DNA from: Bacteroidales bacterium
GTDB taxonomy: Bacteria > Bacteroidota > Bacteroidia > Bacteroidales > UBA932
Direction of reading: 5' to 3'
DNA length: 64,000 nucleotides
NCBI GenBank assembly: GCA_017430365.1
Contig: JAFRNC010000009.1
Location: 161,804-225,803, forward strand
Positions 1 to 28,446 of the stretch are shown here, piece by piece (the stretch's first letter is position 1; every line of letters begins with the position of its first letter). A program made the translations under genes and the position numbers. The notes beneath the pieces are model-generated. The model saw only the letters and a list, made by a program, of their open reading frames with translations. It did not search any database and was not told where the DNA came from.

Positions 1-1430
1 GGACCGTATCTCTCCTCGACTTCCCTGTATTTATCCGGGAGCAGGGTCTCGTGAGCCCAGGATTCGTATTGTTCACGGCTGAGCCAGACCGGGTGGGATT
101 TCTTCAGGAAGTCAGCCTGTGCTCCGGGGGCGTAGGAGCCCATGACGCTGCCTTCGCGGTGGACCATTCTTCCGAAAGCCTCCTCTGTGGCCGGCAGCCC
201 GCTGACATCGTATCCTTCGCTGCGAAGACGTAGCAGGAATCTGTAGATCGACGGGATAACTTCCATGCCGCTTGCGAGCAATGCGTCCTTGCCCGGCGAC
301 TTGAAATAGCATATTGCCACATGCTTGTCGCAGTTGGGCATGGTCCGCAAGGCCATGTAACGCGAGAAATATTCCAGGAAAGCGTCGATCCTCTCCTTTT
401 CAGGGGTGTAAAGGAAGAATCCCGATTCGCCCTCGTTCTGGGTCGCAACGCAATAATTGCCTATGCCTCCATCGATTTCCGGAACCACCACACGTGCGGT
501 GAGTGTGCCGCTGCTCACGGGCAGGAGCGGGTTGATCCAGTCGCTGTGGGGCTGTATAAGCGGGAAAGGATTGAAAAGAGGAATGTTTTCTTCGTGCAGC
601 CAATTGATGAAATCGTCGTTTCCAAGCCGCCCCATGGGCATATAGATCACCGCGTCGGGATGCAGGCTGCGTATCATTTCCTCCCGGGTTTTTCCCTCAG
701 CTGTCAGTGGATAGACATTGTATCCGGCACCGGTCATGCGCGATATCAGGGTATCGACATGGGCACGGTTGCCTTCCATAGGGAAGTTGAGGCCGGAAAT
801 GAAGAGGATCTTTCCGCCGCCTTCATGATATAGGCCTTTTTCGCGCAGATACTCCGTTACGGCTTCGTGGGTAGGGAAATACTTTCCGTATTCCCGGTGG
901 TAATACATGTTTTTCAACAAAGGCACGGGAGGGTCGCAACTGCGGTCCCCGACCCTGAGCGGGGTGGCGATGCTGCGCAGGTAGCGCAGCCCATTGCGGT
1001 AGTTGCCGGCGCTTGGGTTCCGGAAATACTCCGAGAGCGTCTGACGCTGCGCTTCCGTGATGTTGCATTGTACATCGACGTGCTGGTTGTTGAGGGTGTT
1101 GGTGAATACGGCCGTGCCCCGTCGCCCGGCTTTTTCCAGGGCGGCGACCTGCCCGTCGTCAAGATAGAGTCCGCGGCTGAAGATGAAGACCGCGTCGATG
1201 CCCCTCAGACTCCGGCCGTCTTCCTTGACCTGATCGGCATTGGAAAACTTCAGGCGGATACGCCGGCTGTCGTTGTTCAGGGCCACGTCGGCCTGCTGGG
1301 CGAGAGTGGCGTTGATCACAAGGATACGGGTCGGCCGGAGGAATACGAACCAGGCCACCGCTGCCAGAAGGATGACTGCGGCGGCAATCAGGACGGATTT
1401 GCGGATACGGCTAATCCTTTCCTGCGGCAT
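1..1430 (-). CDS. CobN/Mg-chelatase-like large protein (HmuS-like), N-terminal ~476 codons; the gene runs off the left edge
   Basis: Absent from the ORF track because there is no stop in the window. My reverse-complement translation from the ATG at 1430 stays open to position 1: MPQERISRIRKSVLIAAAVILLAAVAWFVFLRPTRILVINATLAQQADVALNNDS ... PDAVIYMPMGRLGNDDFINW ... WAHETLLPDKYREVEERYG. It has an N-terminal TM anchor. The start overlaps the cbiK stop by 20 nt. The + strand ORFs 321..833 and 867..1451 look like antisense shadows. The family call rests on context and recollection of CobN-like HmuS proteins. Confidence 0.65.
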   Translation of the reverse strand, partial: MPQERISRIRKSVLIAAAVILLAAVAWFVFLRPTRILVINATLAQQADVALNNDSRRIRLKFSNADQVKEDGRSLRGIDAVFIFSRGLYLDDGQVAALEKAGRRGTAVFTNTLNNQHVDVQCNITEAQRQTLSEYFRNPSAGNYRNGLRYLRSIATPLRVGDRSCDPPVPLLKNMYYHREYGKYFPTHEAVTEYLREKGLYHEGGGKILFISGLNFPMEGNRAHVDTLISRMTGAGYNVYPLTAEGKTREEMIRSLHPDAVIYMPMGRLGNDDFINWLHEENIPLFNPFPLIQPHSDWINPLLPVSSGTLTARVVVPEIDGGIGNYCVATQNEGESGFFLYTPEKERIDAFLEYFSRYMALRTMPNCDKHVAICYFKSPGKDALLASGMEVIPSIYRFLLRLRSEGYDVSGLPATEEAFGRMVHREGSVMGSYAPGAQADFLKKSHPVWLSREQYESWAHETLLPDKYREVEERYG

Positions 1431-2316
1431 AAGCCTCTTTCTTCTTCATGATGTCCACGGGTGCGTGGTGCAGGCTGAAGCGGATGTGTTCGATGTAGAT
1501 GTCCTGTATTTCAGGGATTTCGCCCATCCCTTCCAGACGGCAATCCACCTGGAAGCCTTCTGACTCGAGCGCTTCCTTCCAGTCGACTGCAATGTCGTTG
1601 GAGGCGTGGTCTCCTGCAACGAAAAGCAGGGGGACGAGCGTCACTTTCTTCGCTTTGGCCATCTTGAGCCTCTCGCACATGGTCCCGAATGTCGGGTATC
1701 CTTCGATTGTGGCAACATGGAAGAGCGGATTGCCCTTTGCAGAGAACATATAGTCAATCTGGCTGTATGTCGCCGTGGCGGGTGTATAGGTACCGTGTCC
1801 CACAAGTACTACATGCGCCTTCTGGCGGGCGTCAGCCGCATCGGCGTGCCTGGCGGCCATTATTCCGACCACCTTTTCACAGTCTTCCACATTGTACAAC
1901 AGAGGGGATCCCACTCTTATTTCCTTGAAGAAACCCTCCATGGCAGCAACATCGCGACGGAGTGATTCCATTTCGGCCCCGTCGAGCAGCGTCGTGCTCT
2001 GGACGATCACATGGGTAAATCCGTCTGCGCGGAGCCGGAGCATCGCTTCCAGCGGGGTCTGCTTCTCGATGCCGCGTTCCTTAAGCCTGCGGATGACGAT
2101 GCGCGAGGTATAGGCGTCCCTCAGGGTTAGTTCGGGGAATGCGGTGCGGGCTTTGGCATTTATGGCTTCGATGGTCTTTTCCCGGGTTTCGTCGTACGTG
2201 GTGCCGAAATGGACCATGAGCAGTGCGGCCTTGTCGCCGGTGAAATTACTTTCTTCCTGGCCGTAAACGGCGAAAGCAGGGAAGAGCATGCAAATAATCA
2301 GGAGGATTTTTTTCAT
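1411..2316 (-). CDS. cbiK: Sirohydrochlorin cobaltochelatase-fold protein CbiK with a signal peptide (periplasmic type)
   Basis: 301 aa. Signal peptide MKKILLIICMLFPAFAVYG. CbiK His motifs VLVGHGTYTP and LLFVAGDHASNDIA. It lies directly upstream of, and overlaps, the CobN-like gene. Confidence 0.85.
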   Translation of the reverse strand: MKKILLIICMLFPAFAVYGQEESNFTGDKAALLMVHFGTTYDETREKTIEAINAKARTAFPELTLRDAYTSRIVIRRLKERGIEKQTPLEAMLRLRADGFTHVIVQSTTLLDGAEMESLRRDVAAMEGFFKEIRVGSPLLYNVEDCEKVVGIMAARHADAADARQKAHVVLVGHGTYTPATATYSQIDYMFSAKGNPLFHVATIEGYPTFGTMCERLKMAKAKKVTLVPLLFVAGDHASNDIAVDWKEALESEGFQVDCRLEGMGEIPEIQDIYIEHIRFSLHHAPVDIMKKKEAYAAGKD

Positions 2317-5609: not shown

Positions 5610-7030
5610 ACTTTGATGTTATTGTTAGGTCTGATGTGTTTCTTCCTGAACAGTTTTCTGATACCGCGGGCAATCCATTTGACGCTGAGTACGATACCGG
5701 TGACGGAAAGTGCGGTACCGCCGATCATCAGTGTGTACATGACGATATTCCAGAGCCACGGGCGGTCGGTAAGGAACTTGAAGTCCAGTGTATGTAGTTT
5801 GTGGTAGAGCCAGTTGCGAGTGCGGGTGTCATCGTCGAACCGACGGGTTTCCAGGGTGACAGGATTGTAGTACCAGCGGGTGTGCATATAGTCGTCTACG
5901 ATGACGCGGTATACGGGAAGCGAGGTTTCATTGACTTTCCGTGTATGATAGTCGCGGTCGAATTCATCGATCAGCTCGACCGTGTAGGGAATGCTGTCGC
6001 GGTACTGCCGCTCCATATCGAGGCGTACCATGTCTTCGGTGATGACAAATGGTCTGACCCCGTCTGCCTGGGCATCGATGAATACGCGTTCCGTCGGGGA
6101 GATAGTCAGGGTATAATAGGGATGTCCTTTGAATTCGCTCCAGGCTAAAGTCCGGGTATCCGGATATGCTGCCAGTGCTGTGCGGTAGTCCAGTGTGTAA
6201 AGACCGGGATCAAAATAACGGGATTCGCCGCGGCGTCCGTCGGGCGGCCCGTTACGTTGCTCGGTTTTCGGCGCTTTCTTCAGGAATTCCGGCATGTCAG
6301 CCAGCGACATCATGCCGCTGAAGGCGAAAGTAATGGCGAAAATGCCGAAAGAGAAACCGAGGATGTAGTGCCAGTTATACCACTTCTTCTTATAAGGGGC
6401 CGCCTTTTTTTTGCTCTTGACGGCCACGCGGATGGCAAGGACGAAGCCCAGGATCACCATAATGCAACCTATGCCGGCCGCCCATTTCACTGAGTTCAGC
6501 CAGAGTTGCTGTTCCTGCCGGAGTTTCGTGAAATATACCCAGTGGGGTATGGCGCCGACCCAGGCCCACATGCGTTCTTTGTGCGAAGTGAACTGCAGCA
6601 CCCGGCCTGTCTTGGAGCCCAGATAAAGCTGATGTCGCTCCGGATCGTCAAAATGATACTTGTAGATTGGAAGCTCTTCCCGGTTGCGACCGAAAGGAAT
6701 CCATTGGTCCAGCTTTTTCAGCGTGTCGATACGTGCCACCGGAGCTGTGCACCAACTGCGGATGGTGGCTTCAAGGGTGTCTTCTACGGGAGTGAACGTC
6801 CGGGCGGAAATCGTCCGGTCCCGTTGATTGGCAAGTATTTCCGTAAGGTTGTCCTTGTCGGGCAGTTCCACCGTGACGAGCGGAGGCAACAACGCCAGTT
6901 GCTTGTCAGCGGACGCACGGGGGAAACCGTGATATATCATCACGATACCCGTGGAGAACCATAGGAAGAACAATCCACACAGTAATACTCCCAGCAACTT
7001 GTGCAGGAAAGAAAGTATTTTGTACAACAT
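5606..7030 (-). CDS. PepSY-associated TM helix protein (PiuB-like)
   Basis: 474 aa. N-terminal TM segment LLGVLLCGLFFLWFSTGIVMIYHGFPR, further TM helices mid-protein and at the C-terminus. This architecture is typical of PepSY_TM proteins encoded next to TonB-dependent receptors. Confidence 0.8.
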   Translation of the reverse strand: MLYKILSFLHKLLGVLLCGLFFLWFSTGIVMIYHGFPRASADKQLALLPPLVTVELPDKDNLTEILANQRDRTISARTFTPVEDTLEATIRSWCTAPVARIDTLKKLDQWIPFGRNREELPIYKYHFDDPERHQLYLGSKTGRVLQFTSHKERMWAWVGAIPHWVYFTKLRQEQQLWLNSVKWAAGIGCIMVILGFVLAIRVAVKSKKKAAPYKKKWYNWHYILGFSFGIFAITFAFSGMMSLADMPEFLKKAPKTEQRNGPPDGRRGESRYFDPGLYTLDYRTALAAYPDTRTLAWSEFKGHPYYTLTISPTERVFIDAQADGVRPFVITEDMVRLDMERQYRDSIPYTVELIDEFDRDYHTRKVNETSLPVYRVIVDDYMHTRWYYNPVTLETRRFDDDTRTRNWLYHKLHTLDFKFLTDRPWLWNIVMYTLMIGGTALSVTGIVLSVKWIARGIRKLFRKKHIRPNNNIKV

Positions 7031-7094
7031 GTTTTGGAATTGAATTCCAGCATACGTGAAACAGCACTGACCCGGCGCTTTTCCACCTTATTGC

Positions 7095-7240
7095 AGACAG
7101 GCAGGTCTTCTGACTCGTTCCGCTTCAAGCGTCTTCCCGGCAATAAGCCAGTGACAAAGGAATGCTTGAGGCTTCAAAGGAACATACAGCAGCGGGCACT
7201 GCTCCGGATTCACACCGGATTCCCTATTCTTTCTCAACCG
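7095..7240 (-). promoter_or_regulatory. Cobalamin (B12) riboswitch, 5' leader of the PepSY-TBDT operon
   Basis: The reverse complement reads AATAGGGAATCCGGTGTGAATCCGGAGCAGTGCCCGCTGCTGTA ... GTCACTGG ... GGGAAGACG ... B12 box AGTCAGAAGACCTGCC (plus-strand 7100-7115). It lies about 70 nt upstream of the ATG at 7030. Confidence 0.85.
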
Positions 7241-7272
7241 TGGTCACGGCTTCGAACACCTGTTTGCGGAGG

Positions 7273-7280
7273 CAAAAATA
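7273..7280 (-). promoter_or_regulatory. Bacteroidetes -7 promoter box (TATTTTTG) for the riboswitch-1 operon
   Basis: Matches TAnnTTTG on the minus strand, about 30 nt upstream of the riboswitch core. Confidence 0.5.
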
Positions 7281-7301
7281 GCATTTTTGGAGCGAAAAAC
7301 C

Positions 7302-7341
7302 AAAAAAAAAAACGCCCCGTGACCGGCTGGATCACGGGGCG
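7302..7341 (-). terminator. Rho-independent terminator of the upstream (DASS) operon
   Basis: The minus strand reads CGCCCCGTGA-TCCAGCCGG-TCACGGGGCG followed by T11. That is a perfect 10-bp GC-rich stem, 28 nt after the DASS stop. Confidence 0.8.
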
Positions 7342-7368
7342 GGGACACACTATAATTCAACAGGGTTC

Positions 7369-8874
7369 CTACACCAGGTGAAGGGTGCCGAAACCATAGA
7401 GGAAGACATAGCCCAGGACTATGCTGATGACGCCGACTATCAGGCCGATCTTGGCCATGTCCTTCTGCTGGACGAGATTCGTGGCGAAGGCCAGGGCGTT
7501 CGGCGGAGTGGATATGGGCAGCACCATCGCACTGCTGGAGGCTATGGCTACGCCGATCAGTACGATGGCGGTGCCGCCGATGGGAGCAATCTTGTCACCC
7601 ATCGCGGTGCATACGACAGCCAGTATCGGCATAAGAAGTGCTGCTGTCGCCGAATTCGAAATGAAGTTCGACAGAGCGTAGCAGATCAGTCCGGAAAGGA
7701 TCAGGATCAGCAGCGGTGAGAACGAATCGAAAGGAATGCTCCTGACCAGCAGCGAGGCGAGCCCCGAGACGTTCATCGCATAACCCAGTGCGAAGCCGCC
7801 TGCCACCATCCAGATGACGGACCAGTTGATTTCCTCTAGGTCGCGCCGGTCTATCACGCCGGTCGTGCAGAAGACAGCCAGAGGAAGCAGGGCTACCGTA
7901 TAGGTATTGATGCCCGTGAACGAGTCGAGGAGCCAGAGCAGTACGGTGACAATGAAGGTCACGATGACGATCTTGGTTTTGCGGTCGCGTTTCATCTCGC
8001 CTTCGATGACCAGGTCGACGGTCTTCTGCGTGAACGGGAAAATCTTCTTGATCAGCAGCCAGCTGATGAACAGCAGCAGTATGACCAGCGGCACCATCAT
8101 CAGCATCCACTGGCCGAAACCGATGTTGAGATTCAGTCCTTCGGGATCGTTCAGGTATTTGAGGGCGATCGTGTTGGGCGGCGTGCCGATAGGGGTGCCG
8201 ATGCCGCCCAGGTTGGCTGCAACCGGGATGCTGAGGGCCATTGCGATGCGGCCCTTGCCATTGGCGGGCAGCTGTTTGAAAACCGGGGCCAGGAATGTCA
8301 GCATCATTGCCGCCGTGGCGGTGTTGCTGATGAACATCGAAAAGAGGCCGGTAATGAGCAGGAATCCCAGAAGCACCATCTCGCTCTTGTTCCCGAAGGG
8401 CTTGAGCAGGATCTTGGCCAGATGGACATCCAGCCCGGTCTTGGTGGCTGCGATGGCCAGCACGAAACCGCCGAGGAAGAGCATTATCACCGGATCGGCG
8501 AAGCAGGCCATGATACCTTTGTAGCTCAGAAGGGTGCCGACCTGGTCCGGATCACAGATCCATTTGATGCCGGAATCCGAAGCGAAGAACAGGAGCATGG
8601 CCATGATCGCGATGGAAGTGGCCCAGGCAGGGACCGGTTCCATGATCCACATGAGCGTCGCGAAGGCGAAGACAGCTATGATGCGCTGCTGGACCACCGT
8701 CAGGCCGTCGATTCCGAAGGCGCTGGCTGGAATCAGGAACAGCGTAATCGTGACGGCCGCGATGATCAGCAGGCTGGCGGTCCTTCGTTTGATCCGGCCG
8801 GCCTGGTGCTTCAACTCCATTCCCATCTGGTAGATGGACTCTACCAGATGGAAACCTGGGAAATTCTTATACAT
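7369..8874 (-). CDS. DASS/SLC13-family anion (di/tricarboxylate or sulfate type) transporter
   Basis: 501 aa polytopic membrane protein. It carries the duplicated DASS signature FISNTATAAMMLTFLAPV and FISNSATAALLMPILAVV. The start is 6 nt after the CbiK-like lipoprotein gene stop, so it belongs to the same operon. Confidence 0.8.
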   Translation of the reverse strand: MYKNFPGFHLVESIYQMGMELKHQAGRIKRRTASLLIIAAVTITLFLIPASAFGIDGLTVVQQRIIAVFAFATLMWIMEPVPAWATSIAIMAMLLFFASDSGIKWICDPDQVGTLLSYKGIMACFADPVIMLFLGGFVLAIAATKTGLDVHLAKILLKPFGNKSEMVLLGFLLITGLFSMFISNTATAAMMLTFLAPVFKQLPANGKGRIAMALSIPVAANLGGIGTPIGTPPNTIALKYLNDPEGLNLNIGFGQWMLMMVPLVILLLFISWLLIKKIFPFTQKTVDLVIEGEMKRDRKTKIVIVTFIVTVLLWLLDSFTGINTYTVALLPLAVFCTTGVIDRRDLEEINWSVIWMVAGGFALGYAMNVSGLASLLVRSIPFDSFSPLLILILSGLICYALSNFISNSATAALLMPILAVVCTAMGDKIAPIGGTAIVLIGVAIASSSAMVLPISTPPNALAFATNLVQQKDMAKIGLIVGVISIVLGYVFLYGFGTLHLV

Positions 8875-8880
8875 GGAAGA

Positions 8881-10020
8881 CTATTCCGGATTCTTGGAGT
8901 GATAGTAGTCGAGAGGCTCGCCGGCGATTGCGTCCTGGGTGTGATTCATCCAGATCTGGCGAACGGTAGGCAGTTCGAGCAGGCCTTTCTCGATCATGGT
9001 CGAGTTGTTGCAGGTGAAGCCGGAACCGTTTGCACCGAAGAAGACTTTCCAACTGCAGTCCTCTACTTCGCCTTCTTCATTGGCTTCGGCCATGAGGTCT
9101 GCGAAAGTGTAGCTCTTGCCTTCGAATTTCTCGGGCAGGTCGTCGCCGGCCATGTCGTTGTGGCCGTGGTCGCCGTCGATGGACATCAGCGGGTGCAGAT
9201 AGACTTTGCGGTTGCCGGTATTCAGGCCGGCCTCCGCCATGCGCTCATAGACATGGGGTTTGAAATTCTCCATCATGTCCACGGTTCCTACGAAGTAGTG
9301 GGGGTTGATTGCCTGCAGTGCTTCTTCAAGCTGGGAGTAGCGGACGTTGGCCTTGTATGTATCGTAGGAGTCGGGGTTGCCGTGGCCCATGAATGCGACG
9401 ATGTCGTTGGCCGCCTGGCTCTTGTAGAGATTGTCGAGGGCCCTGGCTACTGCAGAAACGTCCTTGTCCTCATCCTGGAGGAGTGGAACGCCGAGTTTCA
9501 GGACAACCCTGGACAGGTAGTCGTCATCGAGGTCGCCGTTGGCGTTGTTGGCGAAGTCCTTGATGTAGTTGATCACGCGGGTGTACTCCTCACCGGGGAT
9601 TACCTGCAGCGACTGGACAACGATTTCGCTGTACCTGACGTTTTTCTGGGCGAAAGCGGTGAGCCAGAACGGCGGGGCGTAATAGTTGCGGATTTCGGCG
9701 CCGTCGGCGGCGTTTTCACCGGCGGCCGCACGGTTGATGCAGATTGCAGAGGAGAAGGAGAGGAAGACGTCGTAGCCGGGGAATGCTTTTTTGTAGGCAT
9801 CCACGGTTGCGTCGAATGCGTTGAAGGCCTGCTGCCAGGTCGAACCGAAGGCGACCAGCAGGATAACCTTGTTGTTCTTCTTCTGCTTGTTAACCGTCTC
9901 GTTGACGGCTTTCTGGTAAGCGTTGTAGTTGTACTCCTCGTTTTCTTTCGGGTTGCAGGAAGACAATCCGAAGACGAGTCCTACCATGAGGGCAAGCGCT
10001 AAAATTTTAGTTTTCTTCAT
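8881..10020 (-). CDS. CbiK-fold lipoprotein (IhtB-like), probably surface exposed
   Basis: 379 aa. Lipobox LVFGLSSC followed by the acid-rich stretch NPKENEEYNYN. CbiK motifs LLVAFGSTW, AFMGHGNPDSYD and LHPLMSIDGDHGHNDMAGDD. It overlaps the upstream TBDT gene by 14 nt. Confidence 0.75.
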   Translation of the reverse strand: MKKTKILALALMVGLVFGLSSCNPKENEEYNYNAYQKAVNETVNKQKKNNKVILLVAFGSTWQQAFNAFDATVDAYKKAFPGYDVFLSFSSAICINRAAAGENAADGAEIRNYYAPPFWLTAFAQKNVRYSEIVVQSLQVIPGEEYTRVINYIKDFANNANGDLDDDYLSRVVLKLGVPLLQDEDKDVSAVARALDNLYKSQAANDIVAFMGHGNPDSYDTYKANVRYSQLEEALQAINPHYFVGTVDMMENFKPHVYERMAEAGLNTGNRKVYLHPLMSIDGDHGHNDMAGDDLPEKFEGKSYTFADLMAEANEEGEVEDCSWKVFFGANGSGFTCNNSTMIEKGLLELPTVRQIWMNHTQDAIAGEPLDYYHSKNPE

Positions 10021-12163
10021 ATTGTTTTGAATTGTAGTTGTTGTTTATGGTGGAATTGAATTTGTCGCTGACTTTCCTGCCCTGGTTGAACCGTACGGTG
10101 ACTCCGATGTATACGGTCGTTCCGGGCGTGGTCGTACCCAGGTGCAGGCCGTGGAGCGTACGGTCCACATAGTTGAAGATGTTGTCCACACCGGCTTCGA
10201 CCTTCCACGCGGTACGTTTGGAATGTCCCAGGTCATGACCTGTGGAGATGCGCCATATCTGGTAGCCCTTGCCGTCGCCGTCGATCTGATAGTGGCGTCT
10301 GGAGGACATACGGCCGTAAAGGCCCGCACTCAGCCGGTAGTCCGGTGAGAACCGGTGATTCCATGTGATGAAACAGTTGCCCTTGTGGTGCGCCGTACCG
10401 TCGATTGTCACCTGGCGCATCCTGTCGTGGTCTGCGTCGTACTGGTTGGCGTCCGTATCGAGCCAGCTGTACCCCAGGCCGAAAGCCCATTCCCTGAGGC
10501 TGTATCTGGCGCTGAAATCCACGCCAAGCGTCCTGGCGTCATCCACGTTCTGATACTGCCGGGTCCGTACGGGGTCGTACTGGATGATGTACTCTGCAGG
10601 CGCTTCGTAGTTCGGGATAGTCACAAGTGTGATCATGTCCTTGACACGGTTATAGTAGCCCGTGACGTTGATGCTCAGTCCGGAGAGTGTGTATTCCCCT
10701 CCCAGCGAGAAATAATCGCTGGTCTGCGGACGCAGGCCGAGGTTGCCGAGATAGAGATACGTGCCGCTCATCTGTTTGACGTAGCGGTAGTGCAGTTCCT
10801 TGGGGGTAGGGGTCTTGAAGCCCTGGCTCCAGGTGGCGCGTATGCGCCAGGGCAGGCCCAGTGCAAGCATCGCGGAGACTTTCGGGGTGACCTTGATCCC
10901 GAACTGGCCGTTCCAGGTCAGGCGCGCACCGCCGGCCAGCTGGAGCCGGTTACGACCGAAATCGTGCTGCCATTCGTCCTGGACGTAAAATGCGGCGGTC
11001 CAGTCGCTGACCGTTCCGCCGACCACACGGGTAGGGGCATACAGCCAGTCGTAGCGGTATTCGGCGCCGGTGTTCAGCAGATTGTCGGCGGGCAGCCTGA
11101 AGATGCCTTTCAAACTGGCCATGGCCCTGCGCTGGTCGCTCTGCATTTCGGTCTGGCCGGGCAGATATGGATAGTAGGGATAATAGATCGTCCCCTTGCT
11201 CTTCTCGTAATCTTCGACCAGGGTGGTGGCCGTAAAATAATACATATACGCATGCCGGTTCCAGTCCAGGTCGAGCGTCACCACGTCTGTGGCGTTGGGC
11301 TTCCATTTGGCTCCGGCAGATGCCGAGGCGTTGCGGTACTGCAGGTCGTAGGTGTGTACGTCGAACTGGGCGTATTTTCCGTTGGGACGGTAGATCCGCT
11401 TGCCGTAAATGGTACCGCCCGCATAGAGTTCCAGTTTGTCGGAAGCCGTGAAGGTCAGCTGTTCGCCCACCTGGGCGTTGGTGTGCCGGTTCACGGTCTT
11501 GTTCTGCGAGTCCATGACGGGAGCCTGGGTGCCCGTGGTATGTTCTACGGATGTATTCTGCCAGCCGTCTGAATGCTGGAGCTGGAAGTTGGTGAGTGAA
11601 CTGAGCCGGCCGTATTTCAACCCTACGGCGTTATGCTGGCGCAGGTCGTTGTAGGAGCCGTAGCGGGAGCTGTTTTCCAGCAGCAGGCCCTCTTCGTGGT
11701 GTTTCCTGGTTATGATGTTGATCACGCCGGCGATGGCGTCGCTGCCATAAAGGGCGGATGAGGCTCCTTTTACGATCTCTATCTTTTCTATGTTCTGTGG
11801 ATCTATGAGCGACAGATCGTTCTCGCCGCCCACGTCGCCGTGGATGCGCTTGCCGTCGATCAGGATAAGTATATAACTGTTGCCCAGTCCGCCGAGTTGC
11901 ATGTGCGATCCCATGTCGTCTTCGTTGAATGCGAAGGCGGAGGTAAGGCCGCCCAGGATGTCCTCCAGGGAACGCCCGGCGTAATTGTTCAGCATCTGCC
12001 GGGTTATGACTTCAGTCTGGACGGGAACGTCTTTCAGAAGATGCGTCGTGCCGGTGGCCGTGACGACGGTCTCCGGAATCGTGTCCTGCAGATACGATTG
12101 CGCTGACATGGTTACGGCTAGGCACATGGCCCAACCGATGAGCAATAACTCCCTTATCTTCAT
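10007..12163 (-). CDS. TonB-dependent receptor, BtuB-like
   Basis: 718 aa. Signal peptide present. TonB-box-like PETVVTATG. Plug motifs IEKIEIVKGASSALYGSDAIAGVINIITRK. It is the first gene after cobalamin riboswitch 2. Confidence 0.85.
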   Translation of the reverse strand: MKIRELLLIGWAMCLAVTMSAQSYLQDTIPETVVTATGTTHLLKDVPVQTEVITRQMLNNYAGRSLEDILGGLTSAFAFNEDDMGSHMQLGGLGNSYILILIDGKRIHGDVGGENDLSLIDPQNIEKIEIVKGASSALYGSDAIAGVINIITRKHHEEGLLLENSSRYGSYNDLRQHNAVGLKYGRLSSLTNFQLQHSDGWQNTSVEHTTGTQAPVMDSQNKTVNRHTNAQVGEQLTFTASDKLELYAGGTIYGKRIYRPNGKYAQFDVHTYDLQYRNASASAGAKWKPNATDVVTLDLDWNRHAYMYYFTATTLVEDYEKSKGTIYYPYYPYLPGQTEMQSDQRRAMASLKGIFRLPADNLLNTGAEYRYDWLYAPTRVVGGTVSDWTAAFYVQDEWQHDFGRNRLQLAGGARLTWNGQFGIKVTPKVSAMLALGLPWRIRATWSQGFKTPTPKELHYRYVKQMSGTYLYLGNLGLRPQTSDYFSLGGEYTLSGLSINVTGYYNRVKDMITLVTIPNYEAPAEYIIQYDPVRTRQYQNVDDARTLGVDFSARYSLREWAFGLGYSWLDTDANQYDADHDRMRQVTIDGTAHHKGNCFITWNHRFSPDYRLSAGLYGRMSSRRHYQIDGDGKGYQIWRISTGHDLGHSKRTAWKVEAGVDNIFNYVDRTLHGLHLGTTTPGTTVYIGVTVRFNQGRKVSDKFNSTINNNYNSKQYEEN

Positions 12164-12204
12164 TTTCAGCTCCCGCTTTTTCCTGAGCGGGCGAACTCCA
12201 AATC

Positions 12205-12395
12205 CGGTTCTGGCAGGTCTTCTGACTTTCCCCGGTCCGCTCCGCCTTCCCGGGCATCAGCTTCGTTCCGGCCCGGCAGACGGGGGATGGCGAAGCGCCC
12301 AGTGGCGTTTTGGAAGCGGACCCTTTACGGGGATTACAGCTGCAGGTACAGTCCCGGTCTTTCACCGGATTCCCTTGCACCGGAGCGGCCAAATG
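12205..12395 (-). promoter_or_regulatory. Cobalamin (B12) riboswitch, 5' leader of the TBDT / CbiK-lipoprotein / DASS operon
   Basis: The reverse complement reads GGGAATCCGGTGAAAGACCGGGACTGTACCTGCAGCTGT ... GCCACTGGGCG ... GGGAAGGCG ... B12 box AGTCAGAAGACCTGCC (plus-strand 12212-12227). Confidence 0.85.
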
Positions 12396-12418
12396 CCGCC
12401 CGGTTACCAAAACCGATG

Positions 12419-12426
12419 CAAATATA
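12419..12426 (-). promoter_or_regulatory. -7 promoter box (TATATTTG) for the riboswitch-2 operon
   Basis: Matches TAnnTTTG on the minus strand, about 25 nt upstream of the riboswitch. Confidence 0.5.
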
Positions 12427-12446
12427 GCAATTAATCGGAAATTGTT

Positions 12447-12454
12447 TATCTTTG
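12447..12454 (+). promoter_or_regulatory. -7 promoter box (TATCTTTG) for the riboswitch-3 operon
   Basis: Matches TAnnTTTG on the plus strand, about 30 nt upstream of the riboswitch. It sits back to back with the minus-strand box. Confidence 0.5.
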
Positions 12455-12484
12455 CCGCCGGTTTCGGTGTCCACCGCCACCTGC

Positions 12485-12632
12485 CGGGGCGGGGAAGAAT
12501 AGGGAATCCGGTGAGAATCCGGAGCAGACACCGCTGCTGTCAGTCCTGCTAAACGCCTTGACAATCAATGGTCACTGTCCTTCAGGGGGCGGGAAGACGT
12601 CAGGGATGGGACAAGCCAGAAGACCTGCCGTA
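12485..12632 (+). promoter_or_regulatory. Cobalamin (B12) riboswitch, 5' leader of the TBDT / lipoprotein / cbiA / ABC importer operon
   Basis: Reads AATAGGGAATCCGGTGAGAATCCGGAGCAGACACCGCTGCTGT ... GTCACTG ... GGGAAGACG ... B12 box AGCCAGAAGACCTGCC (12614-12629). Confidence 0.85.
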
Positions 12633-12680
12633 ACCTTGATAGGAATGAAGCTTTCGGGTAATAAAAGCTTGCCGGATCCG

Positions 12681-14837
12681 ATGAGTATCCGATATAGACT
12701 GCTGGTGTCACTGGTCCTTCTGGGGCTGTGCTTCCCTCTTTTCGGGCAGGATTCCCTGTCTGTCAAGGGGACGCTCGGCGATACGCTCGTCCTCAGCAAC
12801 GCTACCGTAACGGCCAAGAGCCGCGAACAGCAGTTGCGTGAAGGGGCTTTCGCCGTGGGGGCTCTGAACATCCGCCTTCAGGCCAGTACGTTGCAGTCGC
12901 TGACATCCGCGATCGACCGCACGGCCGGCATCCGCATCCGCGAGGAAGGCGGTGTGGGAAGCGACTTCGACCTTTCGATCAACGGCATGAGCGGCAATTC
13001 CATCCGCTACTTCCTGGACGGTATGCCCCTGGACGCCAAAGGGACCGGCATGACGCTGGCCAATCTTCCCGTGAACATCATCGACCGTGTCGAAATATAT
13101 AAAGGTGTCATTCCCGCAAGTTTCGGCAGCGACGCACTGGGAGGTGCCGTCAACATCATAACCAACCGCAGCAGCCGCAACTATCTGGACTTTTCCTACG
13201 GAATTGGTTCGTTCCATACCCACAAGGCCGATTTCAGCGCGCAGTACATAGGTAAGAAGACCGGACTGGTTTTCAAGCCCGTGCTGAGCGCGAACTATTC
13301 GAAGAACGACTACCTGATGCGGGACGTCAAGGTCCGCAATGCCGACAGGACCGCGTTCATAGTAACCGACCTGCCGCGTTTCCATGACGCCTACCTTTCG
13401 CTCTTCGGCCAGCTTGAGGCCGGGGTACAGGACCGCGGCTGGGCAGACGCCTTCTTCGTGTCCGCCTCGGTTTCGAAAATCGACAAGGAGATACAGACCG
13501 GTGCGACCCAGGACCGTGTCATCGGAATGGCGGAGCGCAACACCCAGTCGCTGAACGTCGCTGCCCGCTATGAAAAGGCGGATTTCCTGACGGAAGGGAT
13601 GCAGTTCCAGGCATCCGTCTCACACACCTGGGACCATTCCCAGACTATCGATACGACTTACCGCCGCTACTATTGGGACGGTACCTATATCAACGGCGGC
13701 TACAGTGAGATACGCAGCCGCGGCAAGACACTGAGGCAATACAGGCGTCCTCTGACCGTGGTCCGCTCCAATCTTGCCTACCGCCTGGCGGAAGGTCACG
13801 AACTGGCGTTGAACTATCTGCTGAACCGTGCAGGCAACAGGCAGACGGATACATGGGACAGCGATTTCGTTCCGACCGACGATGTCCTGGCAAAGCACAT
13901 AGTCAGTCTTTCCTACGACCAGTCCCTCATGGACGGGCGTATGAACAACGCCCTGTTTGTCAAGGACTATGTCAATCACCTGACAGTCGGCCAGAGCGAA
14001 CTGCCTTCGACGACAGGGTCGGACAAGGTCAGAGGGTCTAATACCCAGAACTATGTGGGGTACGGCATAGGGTCCCGCTATCTCTTCCTGGATCCCCTGG
14101 CCGTCAAGGCTTCCTTAGAACACAGCATCAGGTTGCCGATATCACGCGAGGTGCTGGGCAACGGATCCACGGTCTATCCCAACCTGGCCCTCAAGCCAGA
14201 GATCAGCGACAATTTCAATCTGGGTCTCTTCGGTACCTTCGACCTGGGCGGCGGCCATTCCATATCATATGAGGCCAACGGGTTCATCAGGCTGGTGGAC
14301 AACTATATACGTGCTACTGTCACCGAGACTGAGAGCATGATGCAGTATGTCAACGTGGATGCCGTCCACATCAAGGGCGTGGACGGTGAGATCCGATACG
14401 ACTGGGCCGGGAAACTGCATGTGGCTGCGAATGTAAGCTACGACGACAGCCGCGATATGCGCAAGTACACGCAGTCTGGCGACATTTCTGTCACTTACCG
14501 CAACAGGACTCCGAACCGTCCGTGGACTTATTGCAATGCCGAGGTTTCCTATACCTTCCACAATGTCGGCCTCAGGGACAGCCGCCTCCGCCTGACGGCC
14601 GATTACCAGTACGTACACTGGTTCTATCTCACATGGGCGGCGTACGGCTCCGCCTCCACAAAATCCAAGGTGCCTACGCAGCATATCACCAACGCTTCAT
14701 TGCTCTATTCGTGGCAGGGCGGGCGTTACAATGTTTCGCTCGAGTGCACGAACCTGCTCGACGCACTGGCTTTCGACAACTACATGCTTCAGAAGCCCGG
14801 CCGCGCCTTTTTCTTGAAATTCAGACTGTTCTTATAA
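12681..14837 (+). CDS. TonB-dependent receptor
   Basis: The track ORF starts at TTG 12558, inside the riboswitch. The ATG at 12681 gives a clean signal peptide, MSIRYRLLVSLVLLGLCFPLFGQ. Plug motif VEIYKGVIPASFGSDALGGAVNIITN. The C-terminus is FFLKFRLFL. Length 718 aa. Confidence 0.85.
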   Translation: MSIRYRLLVSLVLLGLCFPLFGQDSLSVKGTLGDTLVLSNATVTAKSREQQLREGAFAVGALNIRLQASTLQSLTSAIDRTAGIRIREEGGVGSDFDLSINGMSGNSIRYFLDGMPLDAKGTGMTLANLPVNIIDRVEIYKGVIPASFGSDALGGAVNIITNRSSRNYLDFSYGIGSFHTHKADFSAQYIGKKTGLVFKPVLSANYSKNDYLMRDVKVRNADRTAFIVTDLPRFHDAYLSLFGQLEAGVQDRGWADAFFVSASVSKIDKEIQTGATQDRVIGMAERNTQSLNVAARYEKADFLTEGMQFQASVSHTWDHSQTIDTTYRRYYWDGTYINGGYSEIRSRGKTLRQYRRPLTVVRSNLAYRLAEGHELALNYLLNRAGNRQTDTWDSDFVPTDDVLAKHIVSLSYDQSLMDGRMNNALFVKDYVNHLTVGQSELPSTTGSDKVRGSNTQNYVGYGIGSRYLFLDPLAVKASLEHSIRLPISREVLGNGSTVYPNLALKPEISDNFNLGLFGTFDLGGGHSISYEANGFIRLVDNYIRATVTETESMMQYVNVDAVHIKGVDGEIRYDWAGKLHVAANVSYDDSRDMRKYTQSGDISVTYRNRTPNRPWTYCNAEVSYTFHNVGLRDSRLRLTADYQYVHWFYLTWAAYGSASTKSKVPTQHITNASLLYSWQGGRYNVSLECTNLLDALAFDNYMLQKPGRAFFLKFRLFL

Positions 14838-16179: not shown

Positions 16180-16200
16180 GATTTGCTAACTTTGTGTCCG

Positions 16201-17496
16201 GTGAAACCACAATTGCTCATCGGCGCCATGCATTCCGGGAGTGGCAAGACCACTTTCACGATGGGGATCCTGCGGGCTTTGCAACGTCAAGGCCTGCAGG
16301 TTCAGCCATTTAAATGCGGCCCCGATTACATCGACACCCGTTTCCACGCCGTGGCGGCCGGACGGGAGTCGGTCAACCTCGACATCTGGCTCTCTTCCGA
16401 GTCGCATGTGCGGGATCTCTACGCCCGTTACGGCGAGGATGCAGGAGCCTGCCTCGTGGAAGGGGTGATGGGCCTCTTTGACGGTTTTGACCGGATGCAG
16501 GGGAGCAGCGCGGCAATCGCGAGGCTTCTCGATATTCCCGTGGTACTGGTTGTAGGCGCCCGCTCGATGGCGTATACCGTGGCTGCGCAGCTTCACGGCA
16601 TGAAGAGTTTCCTTCCGGGACTGCGCATCGCCGGCGTGGTTTTCAACCAGGTATCTTCGGAAAACCATTTCCGTTTCCTGCGCGAGGCCTGTGATGATGC
16701 GGGCCTTCGCTGTTTCGGGTGGCTGCCGAAAGCACCGGGACTGGAGGTGCCTTCCAGGCATCTCGGTCTTACGCTTGCGGCCAGGCAGGATATGGAAACC
16801 TGGATCGACAGGGCTGCGGATCTGGTATCGGCCAATATAGACATAGCCGGATTGCTGGAAGCCGTGAACTCTCTTGTCCATGAACCGGCGGAACGACCCG
16901 TGGAACGGTCTGGTTCACTCAGGACGGCCGTAGCCCGCGACGCGGCTTTCAACTTCACTTACCGGGAGAACATCGCCCGGCTTACCCTGCTCGGACCGGT
17001 GACGTTCTTCAGCCCTCTTGCAGGGGATCCGCTTCCTGAAGCCGATCTGGTCTATCTTCCGGGAGGCTATCCCGAGCTTTTCGCCGCAGAATTGTCTTCC
17101 CGTTCCGGCCTGATGGCTCAGATACGGGACTTCGCAGAATCAGGCGGCCGCATTCTGGCGGAGTGCGGAGGCATGATTTATCTCTCACGGGCCATCGAAG
17201 GAGTGGAAGGCGGTCCTTTCCCCATGTGCGGAGTACTTCCTTTCGCCGCCACCATGGCCGGAGCGCGTCTCCACCTCGGTTATCGCCGCATTGTGGATGC
17301 TGCCGGACGGGAATGGCGCGGGCATGAGTTCCACTATTCCGACGTGACGTCGCCGGAAGCGCTGCCTTCAGCCGCCGTCCAATTCAACGCCAGGGGCGGG
17401 AGGGTATCCACTCCCCTGTATCGCTGGAAAAACGTAATCGCCGGTTATACGCACCTCTACTGGGGTGAGACCGGCATAATGAAATTATGGGATTGA
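16201..17496 (+). CDS. cbiA: Cobyrinic acid a,c-diamide synthase
   Basis: P-loop LIGAMHSGSGKTTFTMGIL and FKCGPDYID. C-terminal glutamine amidotransferase part with AECGGMIYL. The track start is TTG 16183. I prefer the GTG at 16201 (MKPQLLIG...), which is uncertain. Confidence 0.85.
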   Translation: MKPQLLIGAMHSGSGKTTFTMGILRALQRQGLQVQPFKCGPDYIDTRFHAVAAGRESVNLDIWLSSESHVRDLYARYGEDAGACLVEGVMGLFDGFDRMQGSSAAIARLLDIPVVLVVGARSMAYTVAAQLHGMKSFLPGLRIAGVVFNQVSSENHFRFLREACDDAGLRCFGWLPKAPGLEVPSRHLGLTLAARQDMETWIDRAADLVSANIDIAGLLEAVNSLVHEPAERPVERSGSLRTAVARDAAFNFTYRENIARLTLLGPVTFFSPLAGDPLPEADLVYLPGGYPELFAAELSSRSGLMAQIRDFAESGGRILAECGGMIYLSRAIEGVEGGPFPMCGVLPFAATMAGARLHLGYRRIVDAAGREWRGHEFHYSDVTSPEALPSAAVQFNARGGRVSTPLYRWKNVIAGYTHLYWGETGIMKLWD

Positions 17497-26138: not shown

Positions 26139-26158
26139 CAGGGTAAATGATAGAGACA

Positions 26159-27448
26159 ATGAGCAAGCAAGGCATCGGCACGCGCTGCGTGCACGCGGGC
26201 TACAAGCCCGGTAAAGGAGAACCCCGGCAGATTCCGGTCATCCAGAGCACGACATTCAAATACGAGACATCCGACCAGATGGGCCGGCTTTTCGATCTCG
26301 AGGAGAGCGGCTATTTCTATACCCGTCTTCAGAATCCCACGAACGACCATGTGGCCGCGAAGATAGCGGAACTGGAAGGGGGTGTGGGTGCGATGCTGAC
26401 CTCTTCGGGCCAGGCTGCTAACCTCTTCGCCTGCCTTAACATATGCCAGGCCGGCGACCATATCGTGAGTGCCGGAAATATATATGGCGGCACTTTCAAT
26501 CTGTTGGGCGTAACGCTGGAAAAGATGGGCATCGCCGTCACTTTCGTCGATCCTGAAGACCCGGAGGAAAAGATTGCGGCTGCTTTCAGGCCGAACACGA
26601 AACTGCTCTTTGGGGAAACCCTGTCCAATCCGGGTGTCGAAGTGCTGGATATAGAGAAATTCGCTCGGCTGGCACATTCGCACGGCGTGCCTTTGATTGT
26701 CGACAATACATTCCCCACGCCGGTGAACTGCCGTCCGTTCGAATGGGGCGCTGATATCGTGACGCATTCCACTACCAAGTATATGGACGGACATGGCGTC
26801 GCGGTAGGCGGAGCGCTTGTCGACAGCGGCAATTTCGACTGGGAGGCGCATGCCGACAAGTTCCCCGGCCTTTGCACGCCGGATGCATCCTATCACGGAC
26901 TCGTCTATACAAAAGCCTTCGGCCGTGCTGCATTTATCACCAAGGCGACTACCCATCTGATGCGCGACCTGGGCTCGATACAGAGCCCGCAGAACGCGTT
27001 CTACTTGAACCTGGGCCTGCAGACACTGCATCTGAGAATGGCCCGGCACTGCCAGAGCGCCCTTGAAGCAGCGCGGTTCCTGCAGCGTCATCCCGATGTG
27101 GCGTGGGTGAAATATCCCGGCCTGCCGGGAGACAGCCAGCATGTGAAAGCGTTGAAATACCTTCCCGAAGGATCTTCCGGCGTGATGTGCATAGGTCTCA
27201 AGGGCGGCCGCGAATTCGACAACCGTTTCATGGATGCGCTGAGGCTCATCACTATAGAGACACATGTGGCCGACTGCCATAGCTGCATACTGCATCCTGC
27301 GTCTCATACGCACCGGCAGCTCAGCGACGAGCAGCTGCGCGCCGCAGGCATAGATCCCGGCCTGATGCGCCTCAGCATCGGCCTTGAAGATGCCGTAGAC
27401 ATAATCGCGGATTTGGAACAGGCTCTGGAAGCGGCGCACAGGGGATGA
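26159..27448 (+). CDS. metY: O-acetylhomoserine sulfhydrylase (PLP-dependent)
   Basis: MSKQGIGTRCVHAGY...; PLP-lysine motif HSTTKYMDGHG. An alternative ATG at 26147 would be nearly leaderless. Confidence 0.85.
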   Translation: MSKQGIGTRCVHAGYKPGKGEPRQIPVIQSTTFKYETSDQMGRLFDLEESGYFYTRLQNPTNDHVAAKIAELEGGVGAMLTSSGQAANLFACLNICQAGDHIVSAGNIYGGTFNLLGVTLEKMGIAVTFVDPEDPEEKIAAAFRPNTKLLFGETLSNPGVEVLDIEKFARLAHSHGVPLIVDNTFPTPVNCRPFEWGADIVTHSTTKYMDGHGVAVGGALVDSGNFDWEAHADKFPGLCTPDASYHGLVYTKAFGRAAFITKATTHLMRDLGSIQSPQNAFYLNLGLQTLHLRMARHCQSALEAARFLQRHPDVAWVKYPGLPGDSQHVKALKYLPEGSSGVMCIGLKGGREFDNRFMDALRLITIETHVADCHSCILHPASHTHRQLSDEQLRAAGIDPGLMRLSIGLEDAVDIIADLEQALEAAHRG

Positions 27449-28446
27449 TAAGGCACGAACTTGTCCTGGATGATTTTTCCTTCGAGGCAGGCGGCCGTCT
27501 CGAGCATGTAAAGATAGTATATCACACCTCCCGAATCCCTCGGGGGCGGGTGATCTGGATTTGTCATGCACTGACTGCCAACAGCGATCCCGAAGACTGG
27601 TGGCCGGAGATGGTGGGACCCGGCAGATTCTTCGACCCGGAGAGGGATTTCATCGTCTGCGTGAACATGATCGCATCGCCATATGGATCATCCGGCCCGG
27701 CTTCCGTCAATCCTGAGACAGGTATTCCTTTCTTCTTCGATTTTCCTGCTGTTACGGTACGCGACATGGTCACTGCGATGGCCGCGGTAAGACGTCATCT
27801 GGGTATAGGAAAGATCGATTTGCTGGTAGGAAGTTCCATCGGCGGTTTCCAGGCGGTGGAATGGGCGGTGACGGAACCTGATTTGTTTGAGAAGGCGGTA
27901 TTCATCGCCACGTCCCCCCGCGTGTCGCCATATCTGTCGGCGGGCATCGAGACTCAGCGTATGGCACTCGAGGCCGACCAGACGTTCCGGAAGGCGTCTG
28001 ATCTTTCCGGCGGAGCCGCAGGGCTGCGCTGCGCCCGCGCCCAGGCATTGATATCCTACCGTTGTTTCGAAGGATACGGGCTTACGCAGGCCGAGGCCGG
28101 CGACGATACGCTTTTTGCGACGCGGGCCGCCTCGTACGAACGCTATCAGGGAGAGAAACTGGTGCGCAGGGGATTCGATGCGTATTCATATTATTATCTT
28201 TGCAACGCCGTGGACAGCCACAACGTCGGCCGCGGCCGCGGCGGCGTCGCCGCAGCACTCGGCCGCATCCGGGCGAAGACCGTCGTCGCTTCGATCGACA
28301 CCGACTGCATTTTCCCGCCGCAGGAGATTGAAACCTGGGCTCCGTTCATCCCCGGAGCCGTTTATAAACGTTTAACATCTTCTTTTGGACATGACGGTTT
28401 CCTGCTTGAGACCGGACAATTGACTGAATTATTATGCAAGTTCTGA
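27445..28446 (+). CDS. metX: Homoserine O-acetyltransferase
   Basis: 333 aa. Motifs ICHALTANSD and GSSIGGFQAVEW (G-x-S-x-G). ATGA overlap with metY. Confidence 0.85.
   Translation: MIRHELVLDDFSFEAGGRLEHVKIVYHTSRIPRGRVIWICHALTANSDPEDWWPEMVGPGRFFDPERDFIVCVNMIASPYGSSGPASVNPETGIPFFFDFPAVTVRDMVTAMAAVRRHLGIGKIDLLVGSSIGGFQAVEWAVTEPDLFEKAVFIATSPRVSPYLSAGIETQRMALEADQTFRKASDLSGGAAGLRCARAQALISYRCFEGYGLTQAEAGDDTLFATRAASYERYQGEKLVRRGFDAYSYYYLCNAVDSHNVGRGRGGVAAALGRIRAKTVVASIDTDCIFPPQEIETWAPFIPGAVYKRLTSSFGHDGFLLETGQLTELLCKF

Follow-up and report, generated by a model that had tools for sequence, protein, structure and literature searches.

A predicted sodium-coupled anion carrier as the last gene of a cobalamin riboswitch operon in Bacteroidales

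Introduction

Why would a bacterium place a carrier of small anions under the control of vitamin B12? The question is raised by a 64,000-nucleotide stretch of the genome of an uncultured rumen Bacteroidales bacterium (the window; C3:161804-225803 in an assembly of 2.67 Mb with a completeness of 98.7%), in which a gene for a DASS/SLC13 carrier stands as the third and last gene behind a cobalamin riboswitch. We found that this arrangement recurs in separate clades, and that sequence and predicted fold put the carrier among sodium cotransporters rather than exchangers. Below, we describe the operon and its distribution, and then ask which anion the carrier would move when B12 runs out, a question to which a C4/C5 dicarboxylate is our preferred, though tentative, answer.

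Results

The DASS gene closes an operon headed by a cobalamin riboswitch

The features around the DASS gene, in window coordinates, are as follows.

12419-12426, minus strand: -7 promoter box TATATTTG, directly 5' of the riboswitch (pattern scan)
12195-12426, minus strand: cobalamin riboswitch aptamer RF00174, at the head of the operon (cmscan 92.3 bits against a gathering score of 31.5, full model matched)
10007-12163, minus strand: gene 1, TonB-dependent outer-membrane receptor of 718 amino acids (aa) (Pfam Plug and TonB_dep_Rec_b-barrel)
8881-10020, minus strand: gene 2, CbiK-fold lipoprotein of 379 aa (PF06180, 123.9 bits, profile positions 1-221)
7369-8874, minus strand: gene 3 and last gene, predicted DASS/SLC13 sodium-coupled anion carrier of 501 aa (TIGR00785, PF00939)
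7303-7341, minus strand: intrinsic terminator at the operon end (stem-loop 7313-7341; 12-bp stem with 9 G-C pairs, 5-nucleotide (nt) loop, T10 tail)
7273-7280 and 7083-7278, minus strand: next promoter box and second RF00174 riboswitch (cmscan 102.3 bits), at the head of a separate operon
12448-12646, plus strand: third RF00174 riboswitch, heading genes for a receptor, a 440-aa protein, CbiA and BtuFCD

Promoters were sought as the Bacteroidetes-type -7 box TAnnTTTG on the minus strand; matches to the sigma-70 consensus were set aside because Bacteroidetes use TAnnTTTG boxes. The pattern scan found no such box in 7369-12418, the only ones on this strand of the stretch being those at 12419-12426 and 7273-7280, and a terminator scan of 6900-12800 found no second minus-strand terminator-like site besides 7313-7341. 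The genes themselves are closely packed. Specifically, the riboswitch precedes the receptor gene by 31 nt, the receptor and lipoprotein genes overlap by 14 nt, the TAG stop of the lipoprotein gene is followed by TCTTCC and then by the ATG of the DASS gene (a 6-nt gap), and the terminator hairpin lies 27 bases beyond the DASS stop. Behind the B12 box of the riboswitch, 10 nt before the ATG, a CCCGCT...AGCGGG hairpin occurs without a U-tract.

Thus, the DASS gene has a same-strand RF00174 above the gathering score with neither terminator nor promoter in between, which places it in the cis-regulon of the riboswitch. The layout of these features shows that the promoter box, riboswitch, receptor, CbiK-fold lipoprotein, DASS gene and terminator make up a single predicted transcription unit with the DASS gene at its end. 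An earlier first-pass annotation had already described this gene as the terminal one of a B12-riboswitch operon, a description that holds in the absence of an internal promoter box or terminator; the other elements that it named, namely the 501-aa reading frame, the hairpin motifs, the 6-nt gap to the CbiK-like lipoprotein gene and the strong terminator, were all found again. With regard to the two partners, the N-terminus of the lipoprotein matches a surface-lipoprotein model, and the receptor scored below the cutoffs of the BtuB and haem-receptor models.

Sequence and predicted fold assign the carrier to the sodium-cotransporter branch

The 501-aa protein scored 258.3 bits against TIGR00785 ("dass", DASS family sodium-coupled anion symporter; cutoff 198.6, residues 63-489), which was its sole NCBIfam match, and 162.3 bits against PF00939 (cutoff 27). 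PF03600 (CitMHS), which belongs to the same clan, gave 158 bits over an overlapping region; the specific NCBIfam citMHS model for metal-citrate carriers was not matched, nor did the protein match a family hidden Markov model of the cobalt importers CbiMNQO, NiCoT, CbtAB or HupE/UreJ. The first hairpin motif reads FISNTATAAMM (residues 181-191, SNT at 183-185) and the second FISNSATAALLMP (residues 404-416, SNS at 406-408), each with a partner TPPN loop (231-234 and 456-459). The family and the duplicated hairpin signatures given by the first-pass annotation are therefore upheld, with TIGR00785 above its cutoff.

The third residue of the second hairpin motif is known to vary across the DASS family (PMC11584011). 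In an alignment from the orthologue group (surveyed at 80 species-level loci 57-93% identical to the window protein; loci are numbered with the prefix L), the motif is SNS in the window protein and the Prevotella clade, SNT in L039, L043, L057, L061, L064 and L066, and SHT or SHS in orthologues from Bacteroidaceae, Muribaculaceae and the clade with an M49-like partner described below, SHT being the Pho90 motif too. Riboswitch-linked members are seen with all three main variants (SNS, SNT and SHT). Conservation of individual residues was read from an alignment of 38 orthologues, in which N184, N234 and N459 never vary; the window protein also has N407. S447, which corresponds to S412 of the Vibrio cholerae carrier VcINDY, is likewise invariant in the 38 orthologues, and the equivalent serine is conserved in cotransporters only (PMC13394699).

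Among solved structures, phmmer ranked Pho90 (126 bits) and VcINDY (120 bits) first, followed by human NaCT, NaDC1, NaDC3 and NaS1. We then used an AlphaFold2 model built from the 38-sequence alignment (predicted local distance difference test score 82.6, predicted template-modelling (TM) score 0.78) for a Foldseek search, whose top 39 matches were all DASS proteins, with Pho90 at TM 0.79/0.82 and VcINDY at 0.71-0.72 on the query and 0.79-0.82 on the target. Because of the sequence matches, S447 and the fold superposition, we assign the window protein to DASS-C, the sodium-cotransporter branch that holds VcINDY, Pho90, NaS1 and NaCT; by sequence and modelled fold, it is a DASS-C carrier. The analogy with the succinate antiporters CitT and TtdT, which the first-pass annotation had drawn, is not supported by this assignment or by the retained S447; the exchanger LaINDY was missing from the phmmer matches at E <= 0.001 and came only at rank 28 in Foldseek (TM 0.59, 19% identity).

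The same genome holds a second DASS copy, about 47% identical, at C8:285021-286124 (minus strand). This copy is broken: its two matching pieces lie in different frames, about 130 residues have been lost, and the longest frame still open spans 251 aa, so that the riboswitch-controlled gene is the sole intact copy of its type found in the genome.

Plentiful B12 is expected to repress the operon

The closest experimentally studied relative of the window riboswitch is the copy at 291423-291608 of Xylanibacter ruminicola KHP1, which heads a receptor/CbiK-like operon and is 66% identical to it, compared with about 50% for other copies. When B12 was added to KHP1, all six genes downstream of this riboswitch, including the most distal one, fell by log2 4.6-6.2 (25-75-fold) in RNA sequencing (PMC11575231, Tables S5-S7), and the proteins of the operon fell too in the proteome (PMC11575231). 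Since the orthologous riboswitch represses its whole operon, derepression of the window operon under B12 scarcity is a reasonable expectation. We infer that plentiful adenosylcobalamin would shut this operon down, and that the carrier would be made together with the outer-membrane scavenging pair when B12 is scarce.

Placement behind a riboswitch arose repeatedly

For the 80 orthologue loci, riboswitches were surveyed by an iterated nhmmer scan followed by cmscan, and a site was scored as linked when RF00174 lay on the same strand directly upstream of the DASS gene. We found six such loci (L003, L036, L043, L048, L057 and L077), where 0.015 of 80 would be expected by chance (Poisson P ~1e-14). 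At L060, L065, L067 and L076, RF00174 instead lies on the opposite strand and heads a divergent btu operon. Related genomes hold between 1 and 5 RF00174 copies each. In a maximum-likelihood tree, the linked genes are spread over four or more distinct clades (the window clade, L003, L043 with L057, and L048 with L077), and the riboswitches of the linked loci are 45-62% identical, that is, no closer to each other than any two RF00174 copies, the exception being the sister pair L043/L057. Placement of this orthologue group behind a riboswitch has thus arisen repeatedly in rumen and gut Bacteroidales, which makes the carrier a probable real member of their B12-starvation response. Whether the pairing of RF00174 with a DASS gene is conserved in related genomes had been put forward as a check by the first-pass annotation, and the outcome is both positive and recurrent.

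In the closest clade (83-93% identity), the gene occurs in five gene orders, all within cobalamin clusters, and in four of the five it was seen directly behind RF00174. The window shows one order. In L036 and L081/L082, the lipoprotein and receptor genes are divergent behind a riboswitch of their own and the DASS gene stands behind a separate one, followed in L082 by CbiK, CobN and ExbB-like genes. L118 (the extended L085 locus) runs riboswitch, receptor, XusB-like, CbiA, BtuFCD, DASS, CbiK, and L117 (the extended L083 locus) is a long collinear unit with BtuFCD, CbiK, receptor, lipoprotein, DASS and CDF genes. The riboswitches of L036, L081 and L118 were confirmed with Rfam.

The genomes of L003, L043 and L077 carry two riboswitches each, one of which heads the DASS gene and the other a receptor/CbiK-lipoprotein unit. 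The carrier is therefore not marginal in the regulon, since it owns one of the two B12 riboswitches in three genomes. In L003, the DASS gene shares its operon with a receptor whose full-length identity to the window receptor is 27%. A recent horizontal insertion of the window DASS gene was considered and rejected on its G+C content, which is 57.5% against 56.7% for the window.

Some linked loci carry further genes beside the carrier. At L043:7493-9544, the unit consists of riboswitch, DASS, biotin carboxylase and biotin carrier protein; the sister locus L057 has the same carrier-protein gene, but a gene on the opposite strand splits it from DASS. At L117:11567-12973, a CDF cation-efflux gene (ZitB/DmeF-like) directly follows DASS inside the cobalamin cluster, just before a riboswitch that heads an adenosyltransferase-cobQ operon.

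Unlinked orthologues and host metabolism offer clues to the substrate

The binding motifs of the window protein are retained in orthologues that lack a riboswitch; orthologues with informative neighbours are 57-76% identical to it with near-invariant motifs. The DASS gene follows genes for a KorAB-type 2-oxoacid:ferredoxin oxidoreductase at about 10 loci of the X. ruminicola group, precedes that for glutamate dehydrogenase (gdhA) at 4 loci, and follows that for O-acetylhomoserine sulfhydrylase at 3 loci, in which it stands between this gene and gdhA (L010, L028 and L037). Outer-membrane partners are also found. In Muribaculaceae the gene is followed by a DcaP-family (dicarboxylate) porin (e.g., L035:7593-8840), in L077 by a Porin_O_P anion porin (L077:2009-3022), the pair standing behind a B12 riboswitch, and in L041, L044 and L045 directly by an outer-membrane porin. 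In addition, it lies beside a 531-aa lipoprotein with a weak Peptidase_M49 match at 4 loci of the sister clade of the window clade (L006:6474-8069, L009, L021 and L030), and it adjoins nrdDG in the Segatella copri group. The genome to which the window belongs has korA, korB and gdhA side by side at C7:247001-251259, uninterrupted by a DASS gene; it is as if the carrier had moved from the korAB-gdhA cluster to the B12 regulon.

With E. coli proteins (verified against PDB) as queries, we found no homologue of citrate synthase, isocitrate dehydrogenase or SucD in this genome. Consequently, succinate and succinyl-CoA would be the hub of its C4/C5 metabolism, and its 2-oxoglutarate probably comes only from the reductive carboxylation of succinyl-CoA. 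Both subunits of methylmalonyl-CoA mutase are encoded, in agreement with what the first-pass annotation had expected of a host that turns succinate into propionate. The mutase is present in 7/7 examined genomes with a riboswitch-linked DASS gene, and 3 genomes without it carry unlinked copies only.

Discussion

Which anion would be moved when B12 is scarce?

Because orthologues adjoin korAB, gdhA and a DcaP porin, and because the mutase is present in the linked genomes, a dicarboxylate is the substrate that we favour. Our preferred reading, which we hold tentatively and at somewhat less than even confidence, is a B12-repressed carrier of C4/C5 dicarboxylates, most likely succinate. Under this reading, the carrier would be made when B12 is scarce and methylmalonyl-CoA mutase is idle, and would adjust the dicarboxylate traffic of the cell. 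The mutase would be the only point at which dicarboxylate metabolism in these bacteria depends on B12, and with the enzyme idle the route from succinate to propionate would be closed. Efflux of the accumulated succinate, coupled to sodium, would be the most likely direction, although direction is the weakest step of the argument. The first-pass annotation had proposed a relief valve for succinate during B12 starvation, an idea that would fit the dicarboxylate-type neighbourhoods of orthologues and the mutase of the linked genomes.

Several observations weigh against the dicarboxylate reading or its direction. Members of the DASS-C branch normally use the sodium gradient to import their substrates, and efflux, while thermodynamically possible, has no precedent in the branch. 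The partners of the gene look like uptake equipment, given the TonB receptor that is co-operonic in the window and L003 lineages, the dedicated porins and the M49-like lipoprotein. Within the closest clade, the DASS gene always touches a CbiK-fold gene, which hints at a specific link with the chemistry of chelatases. The fold agrees just as well with Pho90 and NaS1, which carry phosphate and sulfate, as with VcINDY, and an inorganic oxyanion is therefore possible. Finally, the correlation between mutase and linkage is not significant (P = 0.096), and KorAB is assigned as a 2-oxoglutarate synthase at the subfamily level only.

An extension of the preferred reading is that sodium-coupled succinate efflux under B12 starvation would also expel sodium, and would in this way replace the sodium-pumping methylmalonyl-CoA decarboxylase, which runs only with B12. 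We regard this extension as improbable; if true, however, it would mean that a riboswitch controls the rerouting of a fermentation end-product and of ion-motive energy conservation together. More broadly, rumen and gut Prevotellaceae set their succinate-to-propionate balance by B12 supply, and this balance affects host glucose supply and the flows of hydrogen and methane.

A possible but doubtful alternative to dicarboxylate traffic, related to the uptake of a metal-carboxylate or precursor that the first-pass annotation had named, is that the carrier provides the inner-membrane step of B12-related scavenging, moving a cobalt-carboxylate, a freed carboxylate ligand or an anionic precursor after the TonB receptor and the CbiK-fold lipoprotein have brought in a cobalt chelate or a small anionic precursor; in a variant, it would export a carboxylate chelator. 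The genome encodes CbiD, CbiK and CbiA, and the cobalt importers CbiM, NiCoT, CbtA and HupE/UreJ were not found in it. HemB and HemC were not found either, because of which the genome must salvage tetrapyrrole intermediates, and it looks like a tetrapyrrole-intermediate salvager without a recognised cobalt importer. The gene context points the same way, in that DASS is adjacent to the CbiK-fold gene in every gene order of the closest clade (with the CDF gene next in one of them), is co-operonic with the same type of receptor in two lineages, and shares the two-riboswitch genomes with the receptor/CbiK-lipoprotein pair as the other unit; many cobalt transporters were first predicted from such context (PMC7689651). 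On the other hand, the DASS family binds anions and sodium, no metal-complex substrate is known for it, and the citMHS model is not matched. Moreover, orthologues that are 70-76% identical, with identical binding motifs, adjoin korAB or gdhA without a riboswitch, and this holds even for genomes of the X. ruminicola group in which the B12-regulated receptor/CbiK-like operon is present; no SLC13/DASS gene is among the B12-responsive genes of KHP1. CbiD is found in genomes with and without a riboswitch-linked DASS gene, and it is missing in the linked genomes of L057 and L077, which incomplete assemblies may explain. The CbiK adjacency, being seen in one clade, may also be inherited gene order and not repeated selection. 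The carrier would be a concrete candidate for succinate handling, or for cobalt or precursor acquisition, when B12 runs out.

We consider it unlikely that the carrier imports some other anion for amino-acid synthesis, such as 2-oxoglutarate for glutamate, or sulfate, thiosulfate or phosphate, with B12 acting through the methionine or glutamate branch and not the propionate one. The orthologues that stand between the O-acetylhomoserine sulfhydrylase gene and gdhA favour such a role, and a gene of this sulfhydrylase type is among the most B12-repressed ones in KHP1 (log2 -5.2; PMC11575231). Likewise, Pho90 and NaS1 are as close to the window protein as VcINDY, part of the orthologue group has the Pho90-like second motif SHT, and one riboswitch-linked copy (L077) is followed by a Porin_O_P porin. 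The window protein itself, however, has SNT and SNS and not the Pho90 motifs, and there is no obvious reason why B12 scarcity would raise the demand for sulfate, phosphate or 2-oxoglutarate. That the gene is a mere passenger in the cobalamin cluster, with no B12-related role, could be argued from the very fluid gene context of the orthologue group and from the 70/80 orthologue loci with no riboswitch nearby. Nevertheless, the excess of linked loci over the chance expectation makes this reading very unlikely. The linkage recurs in at least four clades with unrelated riboswitch copies and in different operon designs, including monocistronic riboswitch-DASS units; it survives at least four rearrangements in the closest clade, and the G+C content of the gene equals that of its neighbours.

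Other features of the window and its genome

The genome holds four RF00174 copies (cmscan), three of which cluster in the window within 5.6 kb. The operon of the second riboswitch (7083-7278) encodes PepSY_TM, a receptor, a 275-aa protein, CbiK and CobN according to Pfam, and parts of the cobalamin gene set of the genome are carried at window positions 1-2316 and 16183-17496. HemB and HemC are also missing in 12/13 related Prevotellaceae genomes. At 26147-28446 on the plus strand, the window carries an O-acetylhomoserine sulfhydrylase-type gene followed by an alpha/beta-hydrolase (MetX-like) gene.

The fourth riboswitch (C10:82193-82387, plus strand, 114.8 bits) lies between convergent genes and runs into the 3' end of nrdG-nrdD (82538-85223, minus strand) in antisense orientation. 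The arrangement hints that B12 controls antisense transcription across the genes of this B12-independent ribonucleotide reductase.

Comparison with known carriers and regulons

A close known carrier of a dicarboxylate is VcINDY, the sodium/succinate cotransporter of V. cholerae (DASS-C; PDB 4F35, 5UL7 and 6OKZ), which has the same family and fold as the window protein (phmmer E = 1e-33). The two share an identical ISNTATAAMM in the first hairpin motif, both (S/T)PPN motifs and the DASS-C serine (S412 in VcINDY, S447 here). They differ in that identity is only about 25%, that the second motif is SNS in the window protein and SNT in VcINDY, and that the window protein has an extra N-terminal helix of about 30 residues; in addition, riboswitch control is not known for VcINDY, whereas the window gene stands behind RF00174. 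Pho90, the low-affinity sodium/phosphate transporter of yeast (PDB 8R33-8R35), is the top match among solved structures in both sequence and structure. It has SNV and SHT motifs and an SPX regulatory domain, in contrast to the SNT and SNS motifs of the window protein, which lacks SPX.

The DASS-E exchangers CitT, TtdT and LaINDY share the superfamily fold, and their dicarboxylate substrates include succinate. AtDiT1 and AtDiT2.1 align to the window protein at 18-19% identity. Furthermore, the window protein retains the cotransporter-specific serine and the sodium-site asparagines, whereas exchangers have basic residues there, whose side chains they use as sodium surrogates (Arg159 and His392 in LaINDY; PMC7553777).

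A transporter has been tied to B12 in this order before. Zhang et al. (2009, PMC2667541) predicted that "CbtD" of B. fragilis and P. gingivalis transports cobalt, judging by its cobalamin gene neighbourhood. As here, an anion-transporter-type protein of Bacteroidales was linked to B12 by context alone. CbtD differs in belonging to the AAE family (two Asp-Al_Ex and two TrkA_C domains), which is unrelated to DASS and includes the SucE succinate exporter. Among 30 CbtD orthologues across the order, including the copy in the window's own genome (C5:168650-170299), we found no riboswitch within 1.5 kb, and its B12 link is thus not confirmed.

At the level of regulation, the window shares its riboswitch family with the B12 regulons of B. 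thetaiotaomicron (btuB/btuG/btuFCD) and of X. ruminicola KHP1, and the first two genes of the KHP1 operon (receptor, CbiK-like) match those of the window operon. The difference lies in the third gene, since the window operon has a DASS gene and the list of B12-responsive genes in KHP1 has none. In the papers searched, the B12 regulons of Bacteroides consist of btuB/G/H/J, btuFCD and biosynthesis genes, and our literature search returned no paper in which a DASS, SLC13 or dicarboxylate carrier, or a succinate exporter of Bacteroides or Prevotella, is coupled to a cobalamin riboswitch. We therefore rate the locus as one in which a known carrier family and a known riboswitch are joined in a recurring regulatory logic that was not previously described in the searched literature. 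Known B12 regulons comprise corrinoid uptake, biosynthesis and B12-independent isoenzymes, and a carrier of central metabolites that was recruited repeatedly behind B12 riboswitches would add a new functional class to them.

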